DNA of 64,000 nucleotides from an uncultured Candidatus Saccharibacteria bacterium (lineage in GTDB: Bacteria > Patescibacteriota > Minisyncoccia > UBA6257 > Colwellbacteraceae), in NCBI GenBank assembly GCA_964609135.1, contig CAZSQQ010000001.1:56673-120672 (forward strand), given 5' to 3'. Position 1 is the stretch's first letter. Every line of letters starts with the position of its first letter. Positions 19,537-52,029 of the stretch are shown piece by piece. A program made the position numbers and the translations under genes. The notes under the pieces are model-generated. The model was given only the letters and a program-made list of their open reading frames with translations. It was not told where the DNA came from and ran no database searches.

Positions 19537-20655
19537 ATGAAAGTCGCTTTAGTTCACGATTATTTGAATCAGTTCGGTGGAGCGGAAAGAGTTTTGGAAA
19601 CTTTGACAGAGCTTTTCCCGGAAGCGCCTATCTACACCCTCTTCTACGATAAAGAGGGCGTGAGTAATAAATTCTCGGGCAAGGAAATAAAAACCAGTTT
19701 TTTGGACAAGCCCTTCATAAGAAAAAGGCACCGCCTCTTCATTCCTCTCTTCGCCAAAGCCGCCGAAACCATGGATTTGGGAGACAATTACGATTTGATT
19801 ATTTCTGATTCTTACGGATTCGCCAAAGGCGTGAAGTACGCCCGGGGGTTCCATATTTCCTACATTCACACTCCCCTCCGCTATGCTTGGGAGCCGGAAT
19901 TCTTTCTCCACACTCTCTTCCCTAAGCTCTTTATTAAATTGGCTTCCCCAATCGTTAATTATTTGCGGGGATGGGATAAGAAAACCTCCGAGAGGCCGGA
20001 TCTGCTGCTTACCAATTCCGCCCACACGGCTAAAAAGATAAGGAAATTTTACGGCCGTGAGTCCACCCTGCTCTACCCGCCGGTTGACTCAAAAACTTTC
20101 TATCCGGATAAATCCATAAAGGCTAAAAATTATTACTTGGCCTTCGGAAGAATCGTTCACTTCAAAAGATTCGATTTGATTGTCAAAGTTTTTAACGATC
20201 TGGGGTTGCCGCTAAAAATCGCCGGCGTTGGTCCCGAAGAGAAAAATATCCAAAAACTTATCAAGTCTCCGAACATAGAATTTATAAACAGATTCCACGG
20301 TGAAGACGAATTAAGAAAACTTATTTGCGGAGCCAAAGCCGTTATATTCCCTCAAGCAGAAGACTTTGGACTGGTCGCCGCAGAGTCTATCGCCTGCGGC
20401 ACGCCGGTCATCGCTTATGCAGAAGGTGGGGCTTTAGAAATAGTAAAAGATGAAATGAATGGCATTCTCTTTAATGAACAAAACCGCGAATCGCTCATCC
20501 AGGCCATTAAAAAATTCGAAAAAATACCCTTCGACAAACGGAAAGTGGCCAAAACATCGAAGGTTTTCTCTAAAGAGATTTTTGAGAAGGGTTTAAGACA
20601 AATAATTGACTCGATTCAGCCTATAATCCAAGTTCGGGAGCAATCTCCTGCATAG
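19537..20655 (+). CDS. glycosyltransferase family 4
   Basis: GT4 C-terminal motif ESIACGTPVIAYAEGGALEIV. Confidence 0.8.
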   Translation: MKVALVHDYLNQFGGAERVLETLTELFPEAPIYTLFYDKEGVSNKFSGKEIKTSFLDKPFIRKRHRLFIPLFAKAAETMDLGDNYDLIISDSYGFAKGVKYARGFHISYIHTPLRYAWEPEFFLHTLFPKLFIKLASPIVNYLRGWDKKTSERPDLLLTNSAHTAKKIRKFYGRESTLLYPPVDSKTFYPDKSIKAKNYYLAFGRIVHFKRFDLIVKVFNDLGLPLKIAGVGPEEKNIQKLIKSPNIEFINRFHGEDELRKLICGAKAVIFPQAEDFGLVAAESIACGTPVIAYAEGGALEIVKDEMNGILFNEQNRESLIQAIKKFEKIPFDKRKVAKTSKVFSKEIFEKGLRQIIDSIQPIIQVREQSPA

Positions 20656-21223
20656 CTTTTAAGGCCATCTCCACGAATTCCTTTAAGGTGATGCCTAATT
20701 TTTCCTCGCAAAGGGTAATTTGCGCCCTATTAACATTTCTTGCGAAAGCTGGCTCGTCAAACCTGCGCAAAATAAAGTCGGTATCAATCGAATTTAGCTT
20801 TTTATCTGGATGAATAAGAGCTGCAGCAACTATGAGCCCTGTTAACTCATCGCAAGTATAAATCCCCCATTCCATCTTGGACTGCGGTTCAACGCCAGAA
20901 TATTCTTTATTGTGGCTTTTGATAGCCCGCATCACCTCCGGTTCAAGCTCTTTACCAATTCGTTCTTCCAATTCAAGCGTGTGTCTTTCCGGATTATCTT
21001 TGGTTAGTTCGTAATCAGCATCGTGAAGCAAACCAACAAGTCCCCATTTATTTTCATCTTCCTTAAAATGGTGAGCCAGAGCTTTCATTACAGCTTCAGT
21101 CGCCAAATGATGCTTCACCAGATTCTGGTTTTTAACTAAATCGGTAAGGATTTTATAAGCTTGGTCTCTATTCATCAATTTTTCTCCACATGCTTCTATA
21201 AGCGCCTTCTGTAGTAAACCCAA
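20621..21223 (-). CDS. HD-domain phosphohydrolase
   Basis: H...HD metal-binding motif (HHLATE...LLHDADY). Confidence 0.6.
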   Translation of the reverse strand: MGLLQKALIEACGEKLMNRDQAYKILTDLVKNQNLVKHHLATEAVMKALAHHFKEDENKWGLVGLLHDADYELTKDNPERHTLELEERIGKELEPEVMRAIKSHNKEYSGVEPQSKMEWGIYTCDELTGLIVAAALIHPDKKLNSIDTDFILRRFDEPAFARNVNRAQITLCEEKLGITLKEFVEMALKAMQEIAPELGL

Positions 21224-21614
21224 GTTTCTTATACCAATCCTTCAGTTCTTCATTATTATCCTCTACAAATATAGCAATTTCATCGTGTCCATGATCTTTT
21301 AGTCTTTTCATTGCCTCTTCCATTAGCTGTTGCCCTATCCCTTTTCTTCTGAATTCTTTTCTCACAGCTAAGCGGAAGACATAGGGGTAGATATCATCTA
21401 CTAGAAAAACATTTCCAACTACTTGGTCATCAACGACTGCAACAACAATGCTATCTGGTTTTTCTTGAGATCTTTTTCGAAGTCTCTCCTCTCCATCCCA
21501 TTCTTCCCAAAAGAGATTTCCCTCTTGAAGATTTTGTTTAACAGCTGGGAAGTCTGTTTCTAAATTGTAATTTCTTATTTGAGCAGTTTGAATATTTGGC
21601 TCCTTTTCGCTCAT
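21168..21614 (-). CDS. GNAT-family N-acetyltransferase
   Basis: Acetyl-CoA binding motif RRKGIGQQLM. Confidence 0.7.
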   Translation of the reverse strand: MSEKEPNIQTAQIRNYNLETDFPAVKQNLQEGNLFWEEWDGEERLRKRSQEKPDSIVVAVVDDQVVGNVFLVDDIYPYVFRLAVRKEFRRKGIGQQLMEEAMKRLKDHGHDEIAIFVEDNNEELKDWYKKLGFTTEGAYRSMWRKIDE

Positions 21615-21663
21615 AAGTTAATGATAACAAAGTTTGTAAGAATTTTGTAAGCTTGGTTGCGAG

Positions 21664-22128
21664 TCATATTTTATCTACCACTTCTAAAGCTTTATCCAAA
21701 AGACTAAAAGATTTGTCAAAAACAAATCTCCCCCTGAACTTCTTATTTTCTAAAAATAGCGGTATCCAATATTGATCATCCGGCCACATTTCAGAAAAAG
21801 GAATCTCATTAATGTTAAACCATTGCGGCTTCATTTCCTCGGTCTCTACAGGTTCACCCTCGAAATCTAAAACTTTAAACAAATGGACTTCGTCAATATC
21901 GGAGTTTCCTTCAACTGTAAACTCTAAAATACCAACTGGTTCTAGGCCCTTGGTTCGAATACCAATTTCCTCATAAACCTCTCTTTTAGCAGCTTCTTCT
22001 ATTCCTTCTCCATCCTTAATCTTGCCGCCAAAGCCATTCCACTTTTTGTCGCCCCACCCTCTCTTTTTCATACCTAAAAGAATTTGTGGAGGTTTATAAA
22101 TTAAGCAAAGAGTATAAAATTTCTTCAC
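21664..22128 (-). CDS. NUDIX hydrolase
   Basis: Nudix box GGKIKDGEGIEEAAKREVYEEIGI. Confidence 0.65.
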   Translation of the reverse strand: MKKFYTLCLIYKPPQILLGMKKRGWGDKKWNGFGGKIKDGEGIEEAAKREVYEEIGIRTKGLEPVGILEFTVEGNSDIDEVHLFKVLDFEGEPVETEEMKPQWFNINEIPFSEMWPDDQYWIPLFLENKKFRGRFVFDKSFSLLDKALEVVDKI

Positions 22129-22129
22129 C

Positions 22130-23110
22130 TTATAATCTTATCTCTTTTTCCAACCAAGGGATATGCTCATTTTTTCTTCGCCAGAAAAGATCTTCCCAGA
22201 TATAATGAACGGCCAAGTGCTTATATTTTCCGTATCTTTCCAGATATTTTAGAAGCTTCTTTACTGATACAGGTTTTTGCGGATCTCTTCCGAAGAAAAG
22301 CTTGGAATATATCTTCTGCTCCCACGGTGAAATGTGATTAAAGAAATCCCAATGGTGAAAAATATCGAAGAGTAAATACCAAACAGTGGCCGGACCAACA
22401 CCATAGAGTTTTAAGAGTTCCTCCATTTGGGTTTCCCTATCTTTACTCCTTAAATCAGCTTCATCAATTAACTTTTTGGCAAATTGCTCATCTACTTTCT
22501 TAATACGCTTGGCTCTATACCCAACTTTCAAACTCCTTAATTTAGCTTCGGAGACTCTAGCTAGCCTCCCGGGTGCCCAAAAACACCAAAGCTTTTGTCC
22601 ATCGAATTCAACAAGGGTTCCGAAGTTTTCCATAAGAGCCTTAAACATCTGTACGGATCTTCTAACGGAGGCGTTCTGGAGAACCATCCCGATAATCAGA
22701 TATTCATAGAGCGAGCTGGGATGACCCGGCCTCATTCCCCTCCATTTTTTGATGACCGGCCCCAGCAACCTATCATTCTTAAAGCTTTTATAAAAATCCT
22801 TTAAGTCCAACTCTAAGTTATAGAGATATTTAACTTCTTCAATTAAAGAATCAATAAAGCTTTTAGATAACTTTTTCTGACAGTAAATTCTGACTTCAAT
22901 CAAGGGCTTACTAACTGTTCCCTTGTTTATAAACTTCAAACCTAATGGCACTCCTTGCCAATTCCAGGTCTGCCAGCGAATCCCGGGCTGCCACAAATTA
23001 TCTCCAGAAGTGAAATGATCTGGTTTATGGAAAGTCGAGTCAAAAGCAAAGGGAGCTGTTGGTTTTATTTTAACAATCCTCCTTAATTTAAATCTTATTG
23101 GCCCCTTCAT
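22130..23110 (-). CDS. HhH-GPD family DNA glycosylase (AlkA/Ogg-like)
   Basis: N-terminal AlkA-like domain plus HhH (LYGVGPATVWY) and downstream Asp. Confidence 0.45.
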   Translation of the reverse strand: MKGPIRFKLRRIVKIKPTAPFAFDSTFHKPDHFTSGDNLWQPGIRWQTWNWQGVPLGLKFINKGTVSKPLIEVRIYCQKKLSKSFIDSLIEEVKYLYNLELDLKDFYKSFKNDRLLGPVIKKWRGMRPGHPSSLYEYLIIGMVLQNASVRRSVQMFKALMENFGTLVEFDGQKLWCFWAPGRLARVSEAKLRSLKVGYRAKRIKKVDEQFAKKLIDEADLRSKDRETQMEELLKLYGVGPATVWYLLFDIFHHWDFFNHISPWEQKIYSKLFFGRDPQKPVSVKKLLKYLERYGKYKHLAVHYIWEDLFWRRKNEHIPWLEKEIRL

Positions 23111-23801
23111 TGACTGATGCTATCTCGGGATTTTTATTTAGAACAACACACCAAAAATATCTCTCATAAATTTTACCCTCGAATTTACTGGGCGCATACA
23201 ACAACTCTGCCGATTCTATCTTCAATGGGAACCAAAGTTTTGCTATTTCTTCAATGGTAAACGTCCTCTCCATAAGACCGACTTCTGGAATCACATAAGT
23301 ATTCTCTTCCGGACCAGGATGTTTATCTATTAATCCCTTGGCTTCTTCATCCACACTACGATCAAGGGTACACAAAAGGAATCTTCCACTATTCTTCAAA
23401 ACGCGCATAACCTCCTTTACATATCTATAAAAATCCTCCTTGGTAAGAAGCTGAGATGTTAGTATATCTATAACGTAGTCAAAAGATTCATCTGGAAACG
23501 GCAGTCCGTTGGAAACATCACACACTGCGTAATTTACATCAGGAGATCTATCCTTAGCTTTATTAATTGCAACTTCGGACACATCTATTCCAGTAACATC
23601 GAACCCTTGCTTAGCAAGCCAACTAGCATTACGTCCTACGCCGCAACCGATATCAATAAGTTTACCCTCAAGTGGAATTCCTCTTGCTTTTAAATATCCA
23701 ACAAATTTGGGGACTGCTACACTCGGTTTATCAGAAACGAGATCCTGAAAGGCAGGGCCCCTTGAATATTCTTTATCCCAAAATTTAGCCGAATCTCTCA
23801 T
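23088..23801 (-). CDS. class I SAM-dependent methyltransferase
   Basis: Motif I LIDIGCGVGRN, motif post-I DVTGIDVS. Confidence 0.75.
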   Translation of the reverse strand: MRDSAKFWDKEYSRGPAFQDLVSDKPSVAVPKFVGYLKARGIPLEGKLIDIGCGVGRNASWLAKQGFDVTGIDVSEVAINKAKDRSPDVNYAVCDVSNGLPFPDESFDYVIDILTSQLLTKEDFYRYVKEVMRVLKNSGRFLLCTLDRSVDEEAKGLIDKHPGPEENTYVIPEVGLMERTFTIEEIAKLWFPLKIESAELLYAPSKFEGKIYERYFWCVVLNKNPEIASVNEGANKI

Positions 23802-24280
23802 TTCTTATCTATAACCAATCCTCCAATTACTCTATGAAAAAAAACTAATTCATTTTTATAATAAATTTCTTCGTAACCTGAGAATTCTTCTACATCCCCT
23901 TCTTGGTCATATTTATATTCCCAGTCTCCATCTTTTAAATTATGAGGGCCTCTAAAAAATTGAAAATTTCGCTCATCCGTTGACATTGCCTTTTTAAGGA
24001 ACTTGAAGGTTTCATTAGTCAAATCTTCTTTACCCTCAATCATTCCCCCGCCGTATAATGCTGACCATACCGGCTTTCCTTTATAGCGGATAAGTTCCAT
24101 TCCGCGGGATTTAATGTGTCCGGTGTAGCTATCTCTATAATAAAAGTCTCCTTCCCTATATTCTAACTCATGAAAATCTTTTCGTTCTGGTTTTACTTCT
24201 TTACCACCTCCGACATAACTACTGCTGACAGAATTTAGTAGAATTCGCCGAATTGATTTTAGTAAAGTCTTCTTAGTCAT
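23798..24280 (-). CDS. hypothetical protein
   Basis: 160-aa ORF, translationally coupled to neighbours; no motif recognised. Confidence 0.35.
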   Translation of the reverse strand: MTKKTLLKSIRRILLNSVSSSYVGGGKEVKPERKDFHELEYREGDFYYRDSYTGHIKSRGMELIRYKGKPVWSALYGGGMIEGKEDLTNETFKFLKKAMSTDERNFQFFRGPHNLKDGDWEYKYDQEGDVEEFSGYEEIYYKNELVFFHRVIGGLVIDKK

Positions 24281-24764
24281 GCCTTTGCCATTCTTGATTG
24301 ATTCCTTTCCTTTTATTGTCTGCTAATACTAATTCATCGGAAATACCATCAATCAAGTCATAGCTTTTGGCCTCTTCCAAGTTAACCCAGGCAAAGTCGT
24401 CTGATTCTTCTTTTTGAAGGACGACATCATGAGAAACATAATCGGCCAAACAAGAAATGACCAGAGATGGAACGCCGTCCTGGTGAATCGTAGCTAAGCT
24501 GGTCACATATTCAATGTTGTCAATCTCTATGCCAACCTCTTCTTTAACTTCCCTTCTTAAAGTTTTCTCCAACACATTATACCAATACTCTTTGGTATCT
24601 TTTTCTAAATTAACGTAGTCGCTGGTATCAAGTCTGCCTCCTGGTACGGTCCACATTCCTGGAAATCTTTTCTTTTTTGGCGAACGTTTGATAATGAGAT
24701 ACTTACCGTCTTTGACAATAATCGCAGTAATAACTACTTCGTGTAAATATTTATTATTTACCAT
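24273..24764 (-). CDS. NUDIX hydrolase
   Basis: Nudix box G...LRREVKEEVGIEI. Confidence 0.7.
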   Translation of the reverse strand: MVNNKYLHEVVITAIIVKDGKYLIIKRSPKKKRFPGMWTVPGGRLDTSDYVNLEKDTKEYWYNVLEKTLRREVKEEVGIEIDNIEYVTSLATIHQDGVPSLVISCLADYVSHDVVLQKEESDDFAWVNLEEAKSYDLIDGISDELVLADNKRKGINQEWQRHD

Positions 24765-24834
24765 TACACTTATGTCCCTTGCGACTCATCTAAGATAATA
24801 CGATGCCTTAACGACCATGGCAATGCTCGAAATG

Positions 24835-25464
24835 TTAGTTAATTAGGGTACCGCGGAAAAAAATGGAAAGATTACGACTTGATATATCAGGATTGGCCGA
24901 GTCATACAAAAATGTTTGCCACCCAAAATCTTGGGCGGTTTTTACATTGCCAAGACTATTTTCAACAAATAAAATGTCGCGTCCTTTTACTCCCGCCTTT
25001 TCTTCTGCCAACTGAAAAATGCGCGGGTTGGGTTTTCGGACACCTTCAATGCTGGAATCAATAATCACATCCCAGGCAATTTCTGGCAGAAGCCCACGTT
25101 TTTTAATGGCTGCAAACATTCCAGGGTACATGTCAGTCAAAAGACCAACCCGACAGTGCCGGCGGATCTCGTCAATGACCGGCCAAATGGATTTGTTTAT
25201 TTCGAAACGGTTGACAAAACCGTCCAGAAGCAATGAGTATCCGTCAGGAAGTTTTGTACCGAATTTTTCTTTAAACAGCGGAAGTAAGGTATCAACATCT
25301 CGGCCTACGCATACTTCGTCCTCGTATTGCTTCCAAAAATTTTTAAACTCCTCGTCGTTTTCGGCTGTGATGCCAAGCTCCTGTTTCAACTCAGCCCATT
25401 TATCGGTACCACTAAAGTCCAGTTCTACAACTCCGCCTAAATCAAAATATACGAATGAGATCAT
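24835..25464 (-). CDS. HAD-superfamily hydrolase
   Basis: Motif I FDLGGVV at N-terminus; motif IV-like near C-terminus. Confidence 0.7.
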   Translation of the reverse strand: MISFVYFDLGGVVELDFSGTDKWAELKQELGITAENDEEFKNFWKQYEDEVCVGRDVDTLLPLFKEKFGTKLPDGYSLLLDGFVNRFEINKSIWPVIDEIRRHCRVGLLTDMYPGMFAAIKKRGLLPEIAWDVIIDSSIEGVRKPNPRIFQLAEEKAGVKGRDILFVENSLGNVKTAQDFGWQTFLYDSANPDISSRNLSIFFRGTLIN

Positions 25465-25576
25465 TTTATTAATTTGGGTAATGACACTTTATGCTTCGGC
25501 CCTCCGGCCTCGCTCAGGGCGGGCAAGTTCAGGATTGCGCATTGCCTTAACGACCATGGCAAAGCCTTAACTATTT

Positions 25577-26233
25577 CTATACTCGCAGGAATTCTCTTAA
25601 AATTTTTGCCGATTCTCGTGGATTGCCTCTACCAATGGGGAAGTAACAGAGTATAACTGGCACATCTAATCCTGAAATTTTCTCGGATACTATTCTGGTT
25701 ACAGAAAAATTTCTCAAATAATCAGACATCTTTATATTCTTACCGGTAAGTGTCTTAAATACCAATGCTCCAAAGGCAACGATGTATTTCGGATTTACGA
25801 GCCTGACTTCTTCCTTCAAGATGTTTAATTGGTCATGAATCACTTCCCTGCTTGGATATTTACCGTGGCTATAGCAGCATTTCACAATGTTGGTTAGAAA
25901 AAATTTATTTTTAATAAGTTCCTTCTGGATTTGCCTAGTATGGTCAGTATCCCAATCCGATCTTTTCGGCAAACCATACGCCACTTTTTTATTTATCAAT
26001 CCCCCATCTGCTAAAACCCTCCAAAATTGTCTCACACCTATGAATGGGAATCTTATTCCCTTATAGCCTGGCCGCGAACTCAAATTTCTATAGGTCGGAT
26101 TAATCAGGATGAGCATCAATCGAGGATTTATAGCTCCGAATCCGTGAATATGCTGTAATTTATTCCTAGTCGTTTTGCAAAATTTGCAGCCATCTACTTT
26201 CTTATATAAGGTTTCCAGTTTCTTATTTCCCAT
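25577..26233 (-). CDS. uracil-DNA glycosylase superfamily protein (family 4/5-like)
   Basis: N-terminal CxxC...HGFGAINP...ILINPT pattern similar to UDG families 4/5. Confidence 0.45.
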   Translation of the reverse strand: MGNKKLETLYKKVDGCKFCKTTRNKLQHIHGFGAINPRLMLILINPTYRNLSSRPGYKGIRFPFIGVRQFWRVLADGGLINKKVAYGLPKRSDWDTDHTRQIQKELIKNKFFLTNIVKCCYSHGKYPSREVIHDQLNILKEEVRLVNPKYIVAFGALVFKTLTGKNIKMSDYLRNFSVTRIVSEKISGLDVPVILCYFPIGRGNPRESAKILREFLRV

Positions 26234-41061: not shown

Positions 41062-41324
41062 TATTTGCCGAACCTAAAAGCCTGTGAAGCCAAGAAACCG
41101 GCAACTACCACCCCCGCATAGCTTATCCACATGGGCACTTCATAGTCACCGATGACTGCCGTCCAACCCAAAACAACTCTTGAAATGTGAAGTAAGGTAA
41201 TAAGAGCAAAAATGATACCGGTTATTTGGAAATAAGTTTTATGAGTCATATTAGTCTTCCTCTTCCGACCTTTATCCCTCAAATTTTCTAACAGATTGTC
41301 TGTATAAGCAATAATCGCAATCAT
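41061..41324 (-). CDS. small membrane protein
   Basis: 87 aa, 2 TM helices; overlaps next gene start. Confidence 0.3.
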   Translation of the reverse strand: MIAIIAYTDNLLENLRDKGRKRKTNMTHKTYFQITGIIFALITLLHISRVVLGWTAVIGDYEVPMWISYAGVVVAGFLASQAFRFGK

Positions 41325-42027
41325 CTCCCGGCGCGGGCATTTCGTCCCTCATCAAACACTTATGCGCCTGAAGAATCGCGTCCTCAACCCACGAGTCGTC
41401 TCCTTCGTAGGGAATGACTTTGATGTCAAACTCCAGTTTGCCGTCAAAAGCCTTCTTATCGGTATCGGCGTTGCAATAGACAAAGTAGCCGGTATTCGAA
41501 ACCTTGAATCCGTTCTTGCGGAATAGCCACTGGTAAACCTCCATCTGTCTCTTATAGCCATCCTGCCACTCGGCATCAAGATTCACCTCTCCGTTCTTGG
41601 AAGTCGCTTTGTAATCAACTATATGCAGTTCACCTTCGGGATTAATCCAGACATCATCAATACCACCTCTTATAAGCATGTTGGTCGGCTGGTGCAAGTA
41701 CTGTATTCCTCTCGTTCGCGAATCTCTCCATTCCTCAAGTCTCTCATCCTGAAAAGGCACGGCATCAATCCCGTAAGCTTTCATCAAAGGATGAGTTGTC
41801 TCCTTCGCCCTATGAATATCAAATTCCTTTTTGAGAAGCGTATCAACCGCATTGTTCAAATTGAAGGGATACCCGGGCGGACGGCCGACTCCCATTTTTT
41901 TCTCCAAATAAAAACACCTGGGGCACTCGATAAAAAGATCAATGCCGCTCCGGCTAAGGCTGAACGGCTCGTGAGAATCTGCCTGAAAAAGGTTTCTTGT
42001 CTTCTGGGGATTATAAAACTGGGACAT
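41272..42027 (-). CDS. PD-(D/E)XK nuclease superfamily protein with Cys clusters (Cas4/RecB-nuclease-like)
   Basis: IDDVW...ELHIVDYK (D...ExK core); N-terminal CPRC and C-terminal CDYC. Confidence 0.5.
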   Translation of the reverse strand: MSQFYNPQKTRNLFQADSHEPFSLSRSGIDLFIECPRCFYLEKKMGVGRPPGYPFNLNNAVDTLLKKEFDIHRAKETTHPLMKAYGIDAVPFQDERLEEWRDSRTRGIQYLHQPTNMLIRGGIDDVWINPEGELHIVDYKATSKNGEVNLDAEWQDGYKRQMEVYQWLFRKNGFKVSNTGYFVYCNADTDKKAFDGKLEFDIKVIPYEGDDSWVEDAILQAHKCLMRDEMPAPGDDCDYCLYRQSVRKFEG

Positions 42028-43826: not shown

Positions 43827-44024
43827 CTAAGCGCGCGAGACGTTCACTGCGGCAGGGCCCTTTTCGGTTTCGCTTACCTCAAAGGTGACCTTATCGCCAA
43901 CCTTCAATTCGTCGAAAGTAACGCCCTTCAACTCGTTAGAGTGAAAGAAAAGATCCTTGTCCTCGCCTTCGCGGGCAATGAATCCAAATCCCTTCTGTGT
44001 AAGAGTCTTGATTGTTCCTTGCAT
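43827..44024 (-). CDS. cspA: cold-shock protein
   Basis: 65 aa; KGFGFI RNP-1 motif, FFHSNEL RNP-2. Confidence 0.85.
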   Translation of the reverse strand: MQGTIKTLTQKGFGFIAREGEDKDLFFHSNELKGVTFDELKVGDKVTFEVSETEKGPAAVNVSRA

Positions 44025-44124
44025 TTGGTTGTTTATATTGTTGCTACGAGAAACTCGACATGTTTTCGCTTCCTAATGGTCTAGATGCAATAGACAAAAA
44101 TGATGCCCTATAAGCCCTGTTTTG

Positions 44125-44325
44125 TCAATTCTGCGACAGAATGTTTTGGACCCGGCCTACCTGGCCATTTGTAAGGCGCACTTTTATGCCGTGCGGGTGG
44201 AATTCGGAGTTGGTTAGGATTTCAGCCACCAGTCCGCGAGTAAGTTCTCCGCCCGCCTGATCGGCTTTTAGAACTACTTCCACTTCCATTCCCGGTTTTA
44301 TATCTTTCCTATTCTGCCCGCTCAT
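44125..44325 (-). CDS. YwbE (DUF2196) family protein
   Basis: 66 aa; VEVVLKADQAGGELTRGLVAEIL...GIKVRLTNGQVGRV. Confidence 0.55.
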   Translation of the reverse strand: MSGQNRKDIKPGMEVEVVLKADQAGGELTRGLVAEILTNSEFHPHGIKVRLTNGQVGRVQNILSQN

Positions 44326-44778
44326 AGTTTCAGGGATTTGGCTTTTTCTGAAAGTTCAAATTTTTCCATCTCCTAATTTTTTCGTTGGCCAAATAGTTAT
44401 TTGTAATTTTGGATTTTATACTGCTGATTGCATAATCTAATAAATCTTTGTAATACTTCTAGGTAACAGACCTTGCATTTTCACTAGCTCCTGTATTTAT
44501 AACTTCTTGGGCCACTTGAATACATTTTTTAGCTTTCACAATTCTCTGCTGCTCTCGTAAAATAATCTCTGTGCTATCGGCTATGTCACCAATTCTACCC
44601 TTTACATACATATCTACAGATTAACTTCTAGTCGTATTGAAAAATTTAGCTCTTTTATCTAAATCGCTTTCAAGTTCTTTTTTGGTGGGAACTTTATATC
44701 GTGCGGAGATTCTTTTTCTACCCATAAATTTATTCCCCTAATTTTTTTGTTGGCTAGTTAGTCAATTTCATTCTCTAT

Positions 44779-45414
44779 CTATACAAAATTCATATTTTCT
44801 TCCTTTAAAAACTTTTGAAGTATAGAATTATTAGAAATAATAAATCTGTTACTGAAACCTAAACCAAATTCATTTTCATCTTTAAGAGGTTTTAGCTTTA
44901 ACAACTTTCTCATTTCGAGTATAAAAAGATCCATATATGATCTTTCTTCCGGTATAAAAAGAGTATACACACTTGGTCCTGTTTTTTTAAATTCTGGATA
45001 CCTACTAATCTCATAAAAAAGGTTATATTTTTTAACTATAAAATCTAGATATTTTGAAGTTAAAACCACGCTTTCTAAATTACTTGCTTCATCTGTACAA
45101 TTCTTTAGTAGTTTTTCCAAATCATGCTCAAATAATCCAATGGAACCCTTTTTAAGAATTAGAAAAGATTTTAAGTAATTTTCTATACTTTGATGGAAAA
45201 GAAATAAAAATGTTTCGATGCCCATTCTACATAAAATTCTACCAGCAAAATATAAATCAGTTCCTTTCTCAGCGTATCCACTAAAACTTTTTCTAGATAT
45301 TTTTGAAATTAATTTATTAGACTTTTTGGGATACAAATTTTGACCAAATTGCAACTCACAATAATTTTTAACGAATTTGTAATCGCTAAAATTTCTTATA
45401 CTCTGATTTGCCAT
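44779..45414 (-). CDS. hypothetical protein in low-GC island (possible HEPN-like helical protein)
   Basis: 211 aa, very AT-rich; helix pattern FHQSIENYLKSFLILKKGS...EHDLEKLL; no firm motif. Confidence 0.35.
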   Translation of the reverse strand: MANQSIRNFSDYKFVKNYCELQFGQNLYPKKSNKLISKISRKSFSGYAEKGTDLYFAGRILCRMGIETFLFLFHQSIENYLKSFLILKKGSIGLFEHDLEKLLKNCTDEASNLESVVLTSKYLDFIVKKYNLFYEISRYPEFKKTGPSVYTLFIPEERSYMDLFILEMRKLLKLKPLKDENEFGLGFSNRFIISNNSILQKFLKEENMNFV

Positions 45415-45495
45415 ACATAATCTTAGTTCTCAATCATTTCTTCGACCTTTTGCTTGAGATTCTAACTGAATTATCAATCTTAAAATAGGTGCCTA

Positions 45496-46674
45496 TTAAA
45501 CCCTGCTCATGACTACAGTTTGATTTTTTATTCTTGAAGTAAGTATTCGCAGAAACTTTAATGGGCAACTTTCTACGAAACTTCTAAATAGCCACGCTTC
45601 TTTATCTTCTAGAACTTTGTCTAGATACTCTGGTTGATACCTCACAAGTTCACTCATAAAAAACATGGTGAGATAAATAACTATATCTTCATGTATTGGA
45701 AATCTCTGATCATCAATAATCATAGGAAGGGTGATATCGAAAGAAGTATTATCTAGCAAATACTTTGGTTCTATTGATGAGTCAAATATCTCTTTTAGTA
45801 TCTTCCAACAATTTATCACTCCGTAGTTAGTCGCCTCCAGAGAAGGATAAGAATCTAAAGATATTACCTTATCTTCCTTAAATTGATAAAAATCTAATTC
45901 TAGCCATTCCATTCTATTAAATTGGAATATATCGCGAAAGGCTAGGTCAGCTTTTGTCGGCATAGATACAAACTCAAAATATTCATCAAATTTTTTAAAA
46001 TTCTCATCCAAGATGGTTTTAGTAATGTCTTTCGGGATAGCTAGAACTGACCAAGCCCTTTTCGTATCCTTATCAAAACAAATACGATGAATTACTGAGC
46101 CTATATTTAGATCTCCGAATTTACACTCTAAGTATTGGTACGAAATTTCTATATTATAACTAAATAGGTCTACTACCTTAAATTTCTTCGGCGGTTCTAT
46201 TTGGAAAACTTCTTTGTAAAATAAATAAAATACTTGATTGTCCCCGTGATTAACATCAAGATACTTGTTAATCAAATCACTTACAAATTGATCTTTACTG
46301 TAATAAATGCCGTGAGATACTTTATCTTGTAGGCTAGGATTTTTTAACAAGATAAACGCCTTAACTAAATTTAAGAAAGAGTAATAATAAAGAAGGGAAG
46401 AAGAGCGAAAGTTAGTTTTGGTTGCTACTTCCCAATAATTATTTGCTTGACGGATAAAGGCTCTAAATCTATGCCACGTATTCTCAAATAATGTTTCGGG
46501 TACATTAAACTTCGAAAACAATTCGTAGGCTGCCGACTTAACTTCTGAAACATGAATCAACAAAAGCCATAGTTCTTGTTCTATATCTAGAGAAGTACCC
46601 ATTTCTATCGTGGAAAAAGGTGGATCGTATCTCCAACTATCTATTCTTCTCAGTTGTGGTGCACCATTTGTCAT
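45496..46674 (-). CDS. hypothetical protein in low-GC island (candidate accessory/defense)
   Basis: 392 aa, no recognisable catalytic motif; about 30% GC. Confidence 0.35.
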   Translation of the reverse strand: MTNGAPQLRRIDSWRYDPPFSTIEMGTSLDIEQELWLLLIHVSEVKSAAYELFSKFNVPETLFENTWHRFRAFIRQANNYWEVATKTNFRSSSLLYYYSFLNLVKAFILLKNPSLQDKVSHGIYYSKDQFVSDLINKYLDVNHGDNQVFYLFYKEVFQIEPPKKFKVVDLFSYNIEISYQYLECKFGDLNIGSVIHRICFDKDTKRAWSVLAIPKDITKTILDENFKKFDEYFEFVSMPTKADLAFRDIFQFNRMEWLELDFYQFKEDKVISLDSYPSLEATNYGVINCWKILKEIFDSSIEPKYLLDNTSFDITLPMIIDDQRFPIHEDIVIYLTMFFMSELVRYQPEYLDKVLEDKEAWLFRSFVESCPLKFLRILTSRIKNQTVVMSRV

Positions 46675-46774
46675 ATTATTCCCAAAAACTAATTTTGGTC
46701 TTTGGAGAGTTTAGTAATCTTTTCTTTTTTCTTTGCTAAAAATTCCTTCAAAACCTCCTTTGGCTCGCGGTGGA

Positions 46775-47347
46775 TCATCTTCTTCCCCTGTTATGAGTAG
46801 CAATAGAAACTATCGAGAAAATGTCTTCTCCCTCTTTTAGAGCATCTAACAACTTCTTAAACATGTAAGCTTTGGGCATATTCGTTTTCTCTTGAATCAT
46901 CAAAAGTTTTGCTAACAATATTAGAAACTCTATGCGATATTCTCCAAAATTACTAATGCCTTGATATTCCTTAATTTTATCCTTGTGTGATTCAAATAAA
47001 TTTTTGATATCTAATGCTATTCCCCGTTCTTTTTCACTATTAACAGGCGAGGTTTCATTCCAAATTTCTATCAAAAAATCCAAAAATTTCTTAATCTTCA
47101 CCTGTTTTGAATTCATCTTAATAAGAAGATCTACTGCCCAGTGAATATGCTTAGGAGTTCTAATATTAGACCAGCCTCCATTTTTCTTAACTTGTCGATA
47201 TTTTATCAAAATATCAAATTTACTTAGTTTACCTTGATATACGCCCACAATTATCTTCGGTTCTGGTTCAAGAATCGTGATGGGCTCAAAAACGCTTCCG
47301 TCTTTATTGAAGGTCATCCACTTCTTTATATCTTCTGGTCTTTCCAT
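46775..47347 (-). CDS. putative type II restriction endonuclease (partner of MTase)
   Basis: 190 aa; start overlaps MTase stop by 1 nt (coupled); no clear PD-ExK identified. Confidence 0.3.
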   Translation of the reverse strand: MERPEDIKKWMTFNKDGSVFEPITILEPEPKIIVGVYQGKLSKFDILIKYRQVKKNGGWSNIRTPKHIHWAVDLLIKMNSKQVKIKKFLDFLIEIWNETSPVNSEKERGIALDIKNLFESHKDKIKEYQGISNFGEYRIEFLILLAKLLMIQEKTNMPKAYMFKKLLDALKEGEDIFSIVSIATHNRGRR

Positions 47348-47348
47348 T

Positions 47349-48191
47349 TCAAAACAATTTCGGGTTCGATTTTAGATCCTTAAATCTTTTTATCGATAGG
47401 TTTAAATATTTTTTCTCTGTATCTATTCCAATGAACTTTCGATCATTTAAAACAGCCGCCAATCCAGTTGTAGAACTGCCAGTGAAGGGATCCAGTATTA
47501 AATCTCCTTTCTTTGTACTAGCTAAAATTATTCTATTCAATAAATCAATAGGTTTTTGAGTAGGATGTTTACCAAATTTCTTTTCTCCGTTTTTTGGAGT
47601 ACCGATAACCCAAACTGATCTCATTTGCTTTCCTGGCTTTTTAATGAAATCTTTCAAATGCCAATTACCTTCCTTAATTAATTTGTAATTAAATGTATGT
47701 TTCGCTTTTTTATCCTTTCTCGCCCATATTAAAGTTTCGTGACTGGCAGTAAAATAGCGACCGCTCAGATTAGGTGACGCATTCGGTTTAAACCAAGATA
47801 TATCGTTCAAAATATGATATCCCAAAGCCTGTAATGCGTACCCACACTGATATATTGAATGATAAGTCCCGCTCACCCAAAGAGTACCACTTGGTTTAAG
47901 AACTCTTTTGCACGCTTTAAGCCAACTATAATGAAAATCATAATCATCTTTAAAGCCTTTACTTTTATCCCAATCTCCTTTGTTAACACTAACTCTTCGA
48001 CCCGCATGCACGGTAAAACCACCGTTGGAAAGATTGTAGGGGGGATCCGCAAAAATCATATCAATTGAATTCTCTGGTATTTTCTCTAAAAGCTTTAGGC
48101 TATCGCCATGATATAAAACAAAATCTCCTTGAATGGAGTAAGGTTTTTGCTTGATTGAGGATAGTATTTTCTTATCTGTTTGGATCATCAA
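47349..48191 (-). CDS. DNA methyltransferase (beta-class N6-adenine/N4-cytosine)
   Basis: Motif IV DPPY (IFADPPYNLS) N-terminal; motif I FxGxG (DPFTGSSTTG) C-terminal. Confidence 0.8.
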   Translation of the reverse strand: MMIQTDKKILSSIKQKPYSIQGDFVLYHGDSLKLLEKIPENSIDMIFADPPYNLSNGGFTVHAGRRVSVNKGDWDKSKGFKDDYDFHYSWLKACKRVLKPSGTLWVSGTYHSIYQCGYALQALGYHILNDISWFKPNASPNLSGRYFTASHETLIWARKDKKAKHTFNYKLIKEGNWHLKDFIKKPGKQMRSVWVIGTPKNGEKKFGKHPTQKPIDLLNRIILASTKKGDLILDPFTGSSTTGLAAVLNDRKFIGIDTEKKYLNLSIKRFKDLKSNPKLF

Positions 48192-48250
48192 AGATACCTA
48201 AATTATGGTCATTTTCCGGCTTAAGACAACTTCTCCACCCTCACCCCGAT

Positions 48251-48293
48251 CCTTCGACGGGGGCTTCGACTGAGCTCAGCCGAATGTCCTCAG
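48251..48293. repeat. GC-rich repeat (inverted copy of element at 59568-59600)
   Basis: CTTCGACTGAGCTCAGCCGAATGTCCTCAG approximates revcomp of CTGAGGACATTCGACCGAGCTCAGTCGAGG. Confidence 0.6.
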
Positions 48294-48304
48294 AACAAGT
48301 TAGC

Positions 48305-49537
48305 CTAAATCAGCTTCTCTATTCTAACACCAATTAACCTTATCTTTTTATTTCGAGGATTTTCTCTTTTATCCAAAAACGGCGCAAGCAACCGCAACGC
48401 CTCAAATTTCAGAGTTCCCAAGTCTGACGCTGGTTTAGCTAAAGTATGCGCCCGGGTTTTAGTCTCAAAGTCCGCGAAACGTACCTTAATCGCCACCGTC
48501 CTAAACCCCCTCAATTCGCCTATTCGCCTATTCCCGCCGGAGGCGGGCAGGCGCGCTTGTCCGCCCCTGGCGGAAATTAGAGAACGGTCCGCCAAACGAT
48601 CAATAACGCTCTCGCAAAGTTCATTCAACCGCTCAGAAATAAATCTCGCATCCTTCGTATCCTCCGAAAAAGTTTCCTCTTCTCCGATTGATTTCGCTTC
48701 ATACTCTTCTACGACCGGTGAATCATCTCTACCTCTTACTTTTTCATACAAATCCAGTCCCCATTTGCCCATCATCTTTTCCATTTCCTCTTTCGAAAAC
48801 TTTTTCATGTCGCGGACCAGTTTCACGCCCAACTTCAAAAACATTTCTTCAGTCTTCGGCCCTATCCCCGGAATCTTCCGAATATGCATAGGCTCCAAAA
48901 ACGCTTCGGCCTCTTCCTCACGCACAATAGTCAGTCCATCGGGCTTATTCATTCCCGAGGCAATCTTCGCAATCAATTTATTAGGCCCCACGCCAACCGA
49001 TACCGTGAGCTTCCGTTTTTCTTTAACTTCCTTTTTTATCTTTTTGCAAAGCTCCCTCGCTTTTTCATACCTATCATCAACCATTCGCCTATTCGCGCGA
49101 ATTAGAGAATGGTCTCCGGCAACGAAACTCAATCCTTCGGCAGACTCAGGATTGACCCTGAACAGAGTCGAAGGGGTCAAATCTGCGTAAGCTTCGTCAA
49201 CACTTGCCTGTTCAACCAGTGCAACATGTGTACGAATGATTTCCATTATCTTTTCGGATTCCTCCGCATACTTTCCCATGTTCACTCCGATGAAAACAGT
49301 CTCTGGCTCGCCCTTCCTCCTTGCAATTTCCGACAACCTCCAAGCTTCCGATATAGGCATGGCCGAATGGATCCCATACTCCCGCGCCTTATAATTCGCG
49401 GTTGAAACAACGCCTCTCCCGCGCCCATCCATCGGATCCGCCCCCACCACAACTGGCAATCCCTCAAGCCGCGGCTTATCCCGCTCCTCAATCGCGGCAA
49501 AGAAAGCGTCCATATCGAAATGAGCAACTATCCTCAT
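48305..49537 (-). CDS. dinB: DNA polymerase IV (DinB), with two in-frame repeat insertions
   Basis: MRIVAHFDMDAFFAAIEERD N-terminus; 410 aa (about 50 aa longer than typical) because of repeat-encoded inserts. Confidence 0.85.
   Translation of the reverse strand: MRIVAHFDMDAFFAAIEERDKPRLEGLPVVVGADPMDGRGRGVVSTANYKAREYGIHSAMPISEAWRLSEIARRKGEPETVFIGVNMGKYAEESEKIMEIIRTHVALVEQASVDEAYADLTPSTLFRVNPESAEGLSFVAGDHSLIRANRRMVDDRYEKARELCKKIKKEVKEKRKLTVSVGVGPNKLIAKIASGMNKPDGLTIVREEEAEAFLEPMHIRKIPGIGPKTEEMFLKLGVKLVRDMKKFSKEEMEKMMGKWGLDLYEKVRGRDDSPVVEEYEAKSIGEEETFSEDTKDARFISERLNELCESVIDRLADRSLISARGGQARLPASGGNRRIGELRGFRTVAIKVRFADFETKTRAHTLAKPASDLGTLKFEALRLLAPFLDKRENPRNKKIRLIGVRIEKLI
48512..48588. repeat. palindromic repeat copy A (expanded variant) inside dinB
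   Basis: CAATTCGCCTATTCGCCTATTC-[CCGCCGGAGGCGGGCAGGCGCGCTTGTCCGCCCCTGGCGG]-AAATTAGAGAA; encodes ...SARGGQARLPASGGNRRIGE... Confidence 0.6.
49081..49112. repeat. palindromic repeat copy B inside dinB
   Basis: CCATTCGCCTATTCGCGCGAATTAGAGAATGG (arms CCATTC/GAATGG; core palindrome ATTCGCGCGAAT); encodes LIRANRRMV in-frame. Confidence 0.65.
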
Positions 49538-50019: not shown

Positions 50020-50595
50020 ATGGGAAAGGTTCGGCATGGCACGATCGAACTCATCGTGGGCGGCATGTACTCGGGGAAGAGCGAAGAGCTTATCCGCCGA
50101 GTCGAAAGGGTCTTGATTGCCAAGCGCGCGGTGCAGGTCTTCAAACCGTCGATCGTCCCGGGTGAAGGGGAGGTTGTAGCCCACAACGGCAGGTCGGCGG
50201 CGGCGATCGCAGTCACGAGTCCTGAGGAGCTTATTCAACTACTCAAGCCCGAGACCGCGACCGTTGCAATCGACGAAATCCAGTTCTTCGACTATCGCAT
50301 CGTGAATGCCGTCCGCGCAATCGCAAAGCAAGGGCGGCGCGTCATCTGCGCTGGTCTTGACCTCGACTTCCGCGGAGAACCCTTCGGCTCGGTGCCGGAA
50401 CTCTTGGCCGTCGCGCAGGAGGTCATGAAGCTCACGGCCATCTGTGTCGTCTGCGGAGAACCCGCTACCATGAGCCAGCGGCTCGTGGACGGGAATCCCG
50501 CGAAGTGGGACGACCCAACGGTCGTAATCGGCGCCGAAGAGAAGTATGAAGCGCGCTGCCCTGAGTGCCACGAGATCGAACGACCGGTACCATAG
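50020..50595 (+). CDS. tdk: thymidine kinase
   Basis: GGMYSGKSEEL P-loop; C-terminal zinc ribbon CVVCGEPA...CPECH; about 60% GC. Confidence 0.85.
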   Translation: MGKVRHGTIELIVGGMYSGKSEELIRRVERVLIAKRAVQVFKPSIVPGEGEVVAHNGRSAAAIAVTSPEELIQLLKPETATVAIDEIQFFDYRIVNAVRAIAKQGRRVICAGLDLDFRGEPFGSVPELLAVAQEVMKLTAICVVCGEPATMSQRLVDGNPAKWDDPTVVIGAEEKYEARCPECHEIERPVP

Positions 50596-50620
50596 AAAGG
50601 CCAGGTGGTACAATAAAGGC

Positions 50621-51508
50621 ATGCGACAGTACTTAGACGTCCTATCCAAAGTCATGACCGAAGGGACTGACCGCTCCGATACGGAGGAAGTTTCAACTCG
50701 CTCCACGACAGCGCAATTCATGCGCTTCAACATGCAGGACGGCTTCCCGGCAGTCACGACGAAACGGCTCGCCTTCAGAACGGCGGTCGCGGAACTTCTC
50801 TGGTTCATCTCGGGGAGTTCGAACGTAAACGAACTCCACAAATTAGGCGTTAAGATCTGGGATGGGGACGCCTATAAGCCCTCCTGGCTTCCAAAAGCGC
50901 AATTTCCCGGAGATGTCGGACGTAATTACTCCAAGCAGTGGCGCGAGTGGCTCGCGCCCGACGGCCGGCATGTGGACCAACTAGGCATAGCGATAAATCT
51001 AATCCAGGAAAAACCGTGGACGGCAAGAGCGCTCGTCTCGGCCTGGAACCCGGGCGAACTCGAAGCGACGGCGCTTCCCGCCTGCCACGTACTCTTCCAG
51101 TTCTACTCGGCCGGCGGAAAGCTCTCGCTAACCATGTACCAGAGAAGCTGCGACATGTTCCTCGGCGTCCCCTTCGACACCGCGGAATTCGCCCTGCTTC
51201 TCCACCTCGTGGCACAGATCACGAACCTCGAACCGTGGGAACTGATTCACGTTCTCGCGGAGCCGCATATCTATGAGGGGCACTTCGAGGCCGTGAAGGA
51301 ACAGCTCACGCGCGAACCATTTCCGCATCCGAAGCTCTGGCTGAATCCGGAGCTAAGGACGCTCGATCAAGTGGTCGCGAAATACCGCGAACTCCTGCAA
51401 AGGGCGGAAGGCGAAGAAAAGCCCCTGAAGCTCATGGATGAAGTGGCCCGGCTCGAGGGCTATAAGTCGCATGAACCCCTGAAGGCCGAAATGGTGGTCA
51501 TCAAATGA
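50621..51508 (+). CDS. thyA: thymidylate synthase (ThyA)
   Basis: MRQYLDVL...RFNMQDGFPAVTTKR...ELLWFISG; catalytic Cys in ALPACHVLFQFY; start trimmed from ORF 50546. Confidence 0.85.
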   Translation: MRQYLDVLSKVMTEGTDRSDTEEVSTRSTTAQFMRFNMQDGFPAVTTKRLAFRTAVAELLWFISGSSNVNELHKLGVKIWDGDAYKPSWLPKAQFPGDVGRNYSKQWREWLAPDGRHVDQLGIAINLIQEKPWTARALVSAWNPGELEATALPACHVLFQFYSAGGKLSLTMYQRSCDMFLGVPFDTAEFALLLHLVAQITNLEPWELIHVLAEPHIYEGHFEAVKEQLTREPFPHPKLWLNPELRTLDQVVAKYRELLQRAEGEEKPLKLMDEVARLEGYKSHEPLKAEMVVIK

Positions 51509-52029
51509 TCGGACGAAGCGTGATCTCCATCGTGGCCGCGATGGACCGGAACCGCGTGATAGGGGTCGAGAACCGCCTGCCGTGGCTCATGCCAGCCGAC
51601 ATGAAGAGATTCCGAGATCTCACGATCGGGAAACCCATCCTCATGGGCCGGAAGACCTTCGAATCCATTCTCGCCTCGCTCGGGAAACCACTCCCCAACC
51701 GCCTGAACATCATTCTCACTCGTGACCAGAACTACAAGGCGCCGAACGGCTGCCGAGTGGTTCATTCTGTAGATGATGCACTCGCAATGGCCAACGGAGC
51801 GGAAGAGGTGATGGTCGCAGGCGGCGCGGACATCTTCCAGCAATTCCTTCCCTACGCCGATTCGGTCTACATGACCGAAATCGATTCTGACTTCGAGGGC
51901 GACGCCTCCTTCCCAGAGATGCCGGAGACGGAGTGGCGGCGGGTTCAGAGCGTCCGACACGAACCGGACGAGAAGAATCCTCATCCCTACTCCTTCCAGC
52001 TCTACGTTCGGAAGGAGAAGCTGAACTAG
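51505..52029 (+). CDS. folA: dihydrofolate reductase
   Basis: ISIVAAMDRNRVIG...LPW...GRKTFESI; ATGA overlap with thyA. Confidence 0.85.
   Translation: MIGRSVISIVAAMDRNRVIGVENRLPWLMPADMKRFRDLTIGKPILMGRKTFESILASLGKPLPNRLNIILTRDQNYKAPNGCRVVHSVDDALAMANGAEEVMVAGGADIFQQFLPYADSVYMTEIDSDFEGDASFPEMPETEWRRVQSVRHEPDEKNPHPYSFQLYVRKEKLN

Follow-up and report, generated by a model that had tools for sequence, protein, structure and literature searches.

The association of HEPN genes with restriction-modification (R-M) systems has been an established theme since 2013, when at least 16 HEPN clades were linked to R-M systems and an RNA-targeting back-up logic was proposed for PrrC, RloC and other R-M-linked HEPN clades (Anantharaman et al. 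2013, PMC3710099). Here we describe a low-GC island at positions 44330-48200 of a 64,000-nucleotide (nt) stretch of the 133,924-bp contig CAZSQQ010000001.1, hereafter the window, from a metagenome-assembled genome of Candidatus Colwellbacteria of the Candidate Phyla Radiation (CPR), a host assignment made through the contig's UvrA protein. The island encodes a DNA methyltransferase (MTase), a 190-amino-acid (aa) partner protein, a 392-aa protein of the YaaC family and a 211-aa HEPN-domain protein (HEPN-211). We consider it moderately likely that the island is a mosaic defence islet of small size and horizontal origin, placed between dinB and a DUF2196 gene, in which an R-M-like module stands beside two stand-alone HEPN effectors. 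In the literature searched, YaaC was nowhere described as having a HEPN fold or as associated with R-M. YaaC is not listed in the survey of R-M-linked HEPN clades (PMC3710099), and no paper in that literature linked YaaC or PF14175 to HEPN, R-M or phage defence.

Like PrrC in EcoprrI and like RloC, the genes for YaaC and HEPN-211 proteins lie in or beside R-M operons. YaaC differs from these effectors in that its core is split by an insert of ~200 aa, it carries no Rx4-6H motif, and its R-M link is frequent only in the close clade. Membership of PrrC/RloC was rejected for both island proteins, as PrrC and RloC have an N-terminal ABC-type ATPase domain fused to HEPN and neither island protein gave a P-loop or ABC match in Pfam; by analogy, YaaC and HEPN-211 may work like PrrC while not belonging to these families.

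AF0298-like HEPN-T proteins (PDB 2hsb; PF05168) and AbiV lose the motif His and keep the Arg where helix 3 ends, and a second conserved His, in the insert between helices 2 and 3, has been proposed as their alternative active site (PMC3710099). The AF0298-like proteins are usually ~120-150 aa long and often occur with a minimal nucleotidyltransferase, of which there is none in the island. YaaC departs from them with its 392 aa, its insert and an N-terminal extension, and HEPN-211 with extra N- and C-terminal segments. Lactococcal AbiV shares the status of a stand-alone HEPN defence protein and the alternative His that groups it with AF0298 (PMC3710099); no sequence match to it was found, and the island shows no sign of an RNA antitoxin. 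AbiV has been reported to be an RNase (2024 preprint, bioRxiv 10.1101/2024.05.05.592566); by analogy, it is an experimental precedent for a stand-alone HEPN defence protein that acts as an RNase.

The remaining two comparisons concern the other island proteins. Bacillus subtilis YaaC belongs to a family without assigned function (PF14175), and the 392-aa protein matches nearly the whole profile of this family. With Type II R-M systems that use CcrM/HinfI-like beta-class MTases the island shares the MTase domain, the motif order and a tightly coupled downstream partner, but for that partner no match to a known family or fold of restriction enzymes was found.

Composition and layout of the island

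A preliminary description of this DNA had reported an AT-rich island of ~30% GC. The measured GC content of 44330-48200 was 0.321 (32.1%), compared with a mean of 0.454 (45.4%) in windows of the same size (standard deviation 0.027; z = -4.9). The island lay well below its background: the lowest other window reached 0.379, and the whole window averages 44.8% GC. The change in GC was abrupt at both borders, ~44300 and ~48200, and the flanking housekeeping genes had normal GC of 0.48-0.51; a cold-shock protein gene in the flanks was likewise of normal composition. These differences from the window and from the flanks indicate a foreign origin.

The four co-directional genes of the preliminary description were recovered at unchanged coordinates as intact open reading frames (ORFs), all on the minus strand. 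The island and its immediate flanks are laid out as follows:

48305-49537: DinB-type polymerase gene (dinB), flank of the island, GC 0.48
47349..48191, minus strand: beta-class N6_N4 DNA methyltransferase, 280 aa (Pfam and PADLOC)
46775..47347, minus strand: 190-aa MTase-coupled protein, candidate restriction endonuclease (gene pairing, no family match)
45496..46674, minus strand: 392-aa YaaC-family protein (Pfam PF14175)
44779..45414, minus strand: 211-aa HEPN-domain protein of the AF0298-like HEPN-T type (Pfam PF05168)
44326..44778, minus strand: AT-rich tail of 453 nt, apparently non-coding, GC 0.32
44125-44325: DUF2196 gene, flank of the island, GC 0.51

The HEPN-211 gene had a GC of 0.259, compared with 0.33-0.35 for the other three genes. 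Gaps of 100 nt and 81 nt separate the 392-aa gene from the 190-aa gene and from the 211-aa gene, respectively. No terminator-like site was predicted inside the four-gene block. Promoter and terminator scans gave counts no higher than in shuffled sequence, and operon boundaries are therefore not claimed beyond the absence of internal terminators. No tRNA or integrase was found at the island edges. A nearly perfect 20-nt palindrome (TTCGACTGAGCTCAGCCGAA, 48265-48284) at the right edge, flanked by the stop of dinB and the start of the MTase gene, could be an operator or a terminator.

The YaaC and HEPN-211 proteins

Both proteins downstream of the MTase pair had been described as unknown and as lacking recognisable catalytic motifs. 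Pfam searches placed each in an existing family. The 392-aa protein matched YaaC (PF14175) with 102.3 bits against a cut-off of 27 (E = 4.5e-29, profile positions 25-306 of 307), and PF14175 was carried by all of its homologs (57/57). The 211-aa protein matched HEPN (PF05168) with 31.4 bits against a cut-off of 22 (E = 2.4e-7). The same profile was matched by 50 of 50 aligned HEPN-211 family members, with a best E of 6.9e-15, so that the loose likeness to HEPN-type folds noted for this protein was upheld.

The AlphaFold model of the 392-aa protein (pLDDT 93.5, pTM 0.92) predicted four helices in an up-down bundle, which superposes on HEPN domains of solved structure. The helices of this HEPN-like core lie at ~60-111 and 329-383 and are split by the alpha/beta insert (~125-325); the N-terminal extension of ~58 aa was found in the close clade and is missing from most distant members. 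Foldseek of the whole 392-aa YaaC against the PDB gave no match, and single-sequence and profile searches gave no match to solved structures for the 190-, 392- or 211-aa proteins. When YaaC was compared with a 4-sequence HEPN-211 alignment, hhalign gave a non-significant result (E = 0.33). With the 50-sequence HEPN alignment, E was 5.6e-4 at a probability of 30%, covering only helices 1-2 and the His, and the alignment placed YaaC K105 on HEPN-211 K82 and H121 on H97. In its predicted structure, the YaaC core is shown as an AF0298-type HEPN four-helix bundle.

Conservation in YaaC was counted over 122 sequences with identity down to 17%. Residues Q76, Y98, N102, K105 and G122 were essentially invariant, H121 was invariant in 122/122 sequences, and R345-Y346-x-P348 was invariant in all 118 sequences ungapped at these positions. 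The consensus around R345, VRYRPxYLE, holds no His 4-6 residues after the Arg. YaaC is therefore without the canonical Rx4-6H and carries instead the AF0298/AbiV-type alternative, with H121 between helices 2 and 3. In HEPN-211, eight residues were invariant across 50 sequences (Y55, Q75, E78, K82, H97, R138, Y139 and F164). Its motifs are E78-x3-K82, H97 and R138-Y139-P140, with no His 4-6 residues past R138, and to judge from the alignment this set is an AF0298-type variant of Ex3[KR] plus Rx4-6H. The positions H121/R345 in YaaC and H97/R138 in HEPN-211 are those given for the alternative site (PMC3710099).

The HEPN-211 family is rare, with 3 non-self homologs in a 5.8-billion-protein set and 86 cluster representatives among 1.84 billion. 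YaaC gave just 2 weak matches in viral contigs. Neither the window YaaC nor a Klebsiella YaaC matched the plasmid collection, and the Klebsiella protein had no E. coli match.

No ORF or Pfam match for a minimal nucleotidyltransferase was found in 44000-48300 or beside HEPN-211 relatives, and a HEPN-MNT toxin-antitoxin (type VII) was ruled out for want of an adjacent nucleotidyltransferase antitoxin gene. The AT-rich tail beyond the HEPN-211 gene (44326-44778) held only two tiny ORFs, of 34 and 50 aa, neither with a Pfam match. It gave no Rfam match, no tandem repeat and an RNA folding z of 0.5, and searches of the tail and the island gave no indication of a structured RNA or an RNA antitoxin. 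An AbiV-like type III toxin-antitoxin, which requires an adjacent structured or repeated RNA, found no support in these results from the window's own tail. Inside the left edge of the island lies a 34-nt imperfect direct repeat, D1 (44369-44402 and 44734-44767; 79% identical). The DUF2196 start has one copy immediately upstream, and the HEPN-211 stop has the other immediately downstream; the two bracket 365 nt of AT-rich DNA and may be an insertion scar or a duplicated 5' leader.

Restriction-modification context and the separate units

Gene neighbourhoods were read at loci of homologs, numbered with the prefix L. By gene content, the closest YaaC relatives (36-50% identity) are shown to sit within R-M operons of Types I, II, IIG and III. 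The neighbourhoods of these and of more distant relatives were:

L001 and L002: Mod, YaaC, Res, with a 4-nt overlap and a 3-nt gap (R-M Type III)
L003: MTase, EVE/NucS-like nuclease, YaaC (R-M Type II)
L004 and L005: MmeI-like fusion, YaaC (R-M Type IIG)
L006: HsdS, 288-aa gene, YaaC, HsdR (R-M Type I)
L071, L072, L088 and L091 (30-35% identity): N6_N4-Mrr fusion, then YaaC
L073-L075 (30-35% identity): C5 MTase, DUF4928, Vsr, YaaC, DUF4145 protein (HEPN family), the block flanked by integrases
L037, 1351-7864: HsdS, AAA_13 ATPase, HsdR, YaaC (Type I R-M neighbourhood)
L030, 1084-7064: AbiEii toxin, HsdR, YgjP-like metallopeptidase, YaaC (Type I R-M neighbourhood)

At 36% identity or above, the context was R-M in 5/5 contexts, the window included. 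The position of YaaC between hsdS and hsdR in L006 is presumably that of prrC in the prr locus, and we take the AAA_13 ATPase of L037 to belong to a family that includes RloC-like proteins. Judged by its genes, the L073-L075 block repeats the layout of the window with unrelated parts; L108 is a second distinct lineage in which YaaC is followed by a DUF4145 (HEPN-family) protein. Other neighbours of YaaC included genes of a defence or mobility character, namely a helicase-restriction endonuclease fusion, integrases, SLATT, Fic and AbiEii, as well as many ordinary genes, and L076 and several metagenome YaaC loci had no R-M genes. The idea that YaaC proteins are linked to R-M in general was rejected, the neighbours of distant members being heterogeneous.

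A different arrangement was seen in three unrelated genomes, where homologous genes begin 11 nt after YaaC (L022 2483-4237, L031 7869-8348 and L109 6869-8623). The L022 gene (584 aa) encodes a GHKL ATPase domain (HATPase_c_3) and a Shedu SduA_C nuclease domain, and the L031 copy runs off the end of its locus. From this gene order, YaaC and the GHKL/SduA_C gene may form a distinct two-gene conflict system. DUF2779 proteins were observed near YaaC in L004 and near HEPN-211 in L011.

The island genes were also found apart. A profile of the HEPN-211 family found no member in ~149 YaaC loci, and HEPN-211 relatives, none of them with a YaaC or MTase partner nearby, followed either a DUF5667 gene (L007) or, in an island that also has NERD, HicA, Fic and RhuM genes, an unrelated gene of 228 aa (L009-L011). 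The 81 genes downstream of YaaC were nearly all singletons. A conserved pair of YaaC and HEPN-211 was rejected on these grounds, and with it the earlier proposal that the 392-aa and 211-aa proteins form one accessory or abortive-infection module. The MTase and 190-aa pair likewise occurred elsewhere without either HEPN gene. Because the units occur separately and the HEPN-211 gene has the lower GC (0.26), the island is shown, at the level of gene neighbourhoods, to be a mosaic of three separately travelling units.

The 280-aa MTase matched Pfam PF01555 (E = 5.4e-59) and PADLOC MTase_II (PDLC03371, E = 1.8e-99), with DPPY ahead of FxGxG in the translation. The beta-class assignment made earlier was thus confirmed, and a DNA methyltransferase with catalytic and AdoMet-binding motifs, as a Type II R-M system requires, is present. 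Its ORF begins at TTG, with an ATG one codon further. The enzyme is probably N6-adenine specific, because of the DPPY motif. It scored 250 bits against the NCBIfam CcrM model, whose cut-off is 830, and by this score it is CcrM-like but not CcrM itself. It was 59% identical to the MTase neighbouring a 190-aa homolog in L163. A check with PADLOC, suggested in the preliminary description, returned the MTase_II match and had no model for YaaC or this HEPN; in PADLOC-DB v2 the 190-aa and 392-aa proteins had no match, and HEPN-211 gave only E = 0.017 to PDC-M01B.

The stop of the MTase gene had been thought to overlap the start of the 190-aa gene. The actual junction is TGA-A-ATG, a 1-nt spacer without overlap that is compatible with translational coupling. 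The 190-aa protein gave no match in Pfam, PADLOC, NCBIfam or PDB sequences, and no nuclease family or fold match was found. Its family comprises more than 1,135 proteins, 55-76% identical, from CPR, Planctomycetes, Brocadiales and Ignavibacteria, with a mean column identity of 68% and numerous invariant polar residues, charged residues and His included. It was absent from viral contigs and had no plasmid matches. In 4/4 independent contexts read, a 190-aa homolog lay downstream of an N6_N4 methyltransferase. In L070 and L159-L162 it followed the MTase directly, with overlapping stop and start codons, and the pair stood amid housekeeping genes. The earlier reading of the two genes as an R-M pair thus holds in that the coupled partner is conserved elsewhere, whereas the restriction-enzyme label is without a nuclease match.

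Two features of the pairing bear on the role of the partner. In L163 (1822-4058), from a Planctomycetes metagenome-assembled genome, an N6_N4 MTase is followed by a MutH-family endonuclease and then by the 190-aa homolog (67% identical). Because of this MutH-family gene, the 190-aa family can apparently coexist with another nuclease. The partner MTases were either of 280/323 aa or of 509/517 aa, two kinds that are not orthologous and share only 46-96 aligned residues, while their 190-aa homologs were 55-68% identical. The 509/517-aa MTases (L070 3472-5001 and L159 1951-3504) each gave two separate N6_N4 Pfam matches, and by eye the 509-aa MTase of L070 contains an internal repeated segment (ETTTFWSFKK... 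and ETTTIWKFKK...), which suggests that these are tandem or duplicated methyltransferases.

Elsewhere in the window, genes for thymidine kinase, thymidylate synthase and dihydrofolate reductase stood in a row at 50020-52029 on the plus strand, opposite to most neighbours, with a GC of 0.57-0.61 compared with 0.45 for the genome; this looks like a horizontally acquired thymidylate-synthesis cassette. A milder low-GC stretch at 20000-26000 (0.38-0.40), all on the minus strand, encodes HD-domain, HhH-GPD glycosylase, SAM methyltransferase, DUF5680, NUDIX and HAD hydrolase proteins. A 251-aa protein of the PD-(D/E)XK nuclease superfamily (41272-42027, minus strand; PDDEXK_1 E = 1.1e-14) lies ~2.7 kb from the left edge of the island.

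Proposed mechanism and competing explanations

The stretch is compositionally foreign, and the superfamily of its two downstream genes is typical of effectors linked to R-M or active in abortive infection, in keeping with the defence-island character first ascribed to it. We propose that the islet combines three units. The MTase and its translationally coupled 190-aa partner would form a modification module, with the partner as a likely, though unproven, restriction component. YaaC would contribute an AF0298-type HEPN bundle split by an insert without known fold, and HEPN-211 a rare, classical HEPN protein. We infer, by analogy, that both HEPN-type proteins target RNA through a His/Arg site, as metal-independent RNases or RNA binders, with the alternative active site formed by the His from the helix 2-3 insert and the Arg at the end of helix 3. 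In the manner proposed for PrrC, RloC and other R-M-linked HEPN clades, they may serve as second-line effectors of the abortive-infection type alongside the R-M module, silent during working restriction and attacking RNA once restriction is bypassed. A role of the YaaC insert domain as a sensor or docking surface is speculation. A bolder version, that YaaC proteins are widespread HEPN effectors plugging into all R-M types, with an insert that senses restriction failure or inhibition, and that the 190-aa family is a new-fold endonuclease, appears doubtful to us.

Several results weigh against the proposed islet of R-M module and HEPN effectors. At 30-35% identity, R-M context was seen in roughly 4 of 13 YaaC lineages, and R-M markers lay within 5 kb in 7 of 55 distant YaaC loci, the Type I loci L030 and L037 included. 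YaaC may work without R-M, because the R-M link is not general across the family. The window YaaC is 100 nt away from the 190-aa gene, whereas its closest relatives are tightly coupled to R-M genes. Profile-profile support for YaaC as a HEPN protein was modest (probability 30%), the canonical Rx4-6H is missing from both YaaC and HEPN-211, and PADLOC has no model for either. Any catalytic role of YaaC and of AF0298-type HEPNs is putative. For the 190-aa protein, neither family nor fold supports a nuclease role, and such a role is challenged both by the MutH-family gene in L163 and by the pairing with two unrelated MTase families.

Whether the 190-aa protein is a restriction enzyme is, in our judgement, about evenly balanced. 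Its rival, an accessory protein without nuclease activity (for instance one that binds DNA or confers specificity), with an orphan or regulatory MTase and no working R-M in the island, is a serious alternative but a less likely one than the proposed islet. The missing nuclease match, the endonuclease gene between MTase and 190-aa homolog in L163, the partnership of similar 190-aa homologs with two dissimilar MTase families and the housekeeping surroundings in L070 and L159-L162 all favour an accessory, and so does a mean column identity that is unusually high for a restriction enzyme. Set against it are the constant company of an MTase with start/stop coupling, the many invariant charged and His residues, the absence from viral contigs and plasmids, and a patchy cross-phylum spread at high identity that is typical of mobile R-M genes; novel restriction-enzyme folds, moreover, often give no detectable match. 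The two HEPN-type proteins might also be non-catalytic nucleotide or RNA binders with housekeeping or regulatory roles, mere passengers beside the MTase, since neither has the canonical motif, some HEPN domains only bind (PMC3710099), the YaaC family is named for an uncharacterised chromosomal gene of Bacillus subtilis, and many distant YaaC loci have ordinary neighbours. This is improbable in view of the His and Arg-Tyr that are invariant across the whole family, the translational coupling of close YaaC relatives inside R-M operons, and the combination of foreign GC, sporadic distribution and shifting neighbours rich in R-M, integrase and conflict-system genes.

HEPN domains function as dimers, the 392-aa and 211-aa genes are neighbours on the same strand with a spacing of 81 nt in which no terminator was predicted, and in two other YaaC lineages (L073-L075 and L108) the gene after YaaC is from a different HEPN family, DUF4145. 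The 392-aa and 211-aa genes could be one obligate two-gene system, in which the proteins form a HEPN heterodimer or one is a toxin and the other regulates it. Such a system is quite improbable given the profile search, which found no HEPN-211 member at the YaaC loci, the HEPN-211 relatives that stand beside a DUF5667 or unrelated 228-aa gene without YaaC, the almost uniformly singleton genes downstream of YaaC, and the GC of the HEPN-211 gene (0.26 versus 0.33). Least likely of all, at a very low probability, is an AbiV-like type III toxin-antitoxin in which HEPN-211 would be the toxin and the adjacent 453-nt tail would encode the RNA antitoxin. No protein antitoxin (MNT) is present, an unexplained non-coding stretch adjoins the gene, and an adjacent RNA reportedly neutralises the HEPN RNase AbiV (bioRxiv 10.1101/2024.05.05.592566); the tail, however, has neither tandem repeats nor an Rfam match and folds no better than shuffled sequence.

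The mosaic islet of R-M-like module and HEPN effectors, if correct, would supply YaaC, a Pfam family of many bacterial phyla that is uncharacterised, with both a fold and a function, and would add it to the RNA-targeting back-ups wired to R-M. The 190-aa family, which is large, highly conserved, unannotated and tied to methyltransferases, would represent either a restriction enzyme of new fold or a methyltransferase partner of a new kind. Constructs compact enough to be tested directly are offered by the Mod-YaaC-Res and HsdS-x-YaaC-HsdR operons. CPR bacteria, whose genomes are very small, probably depend heavily on R-M to defend themselves, and a layered R-M and HEPN islet would show defence stacking within 4 kb of a CPR genome.

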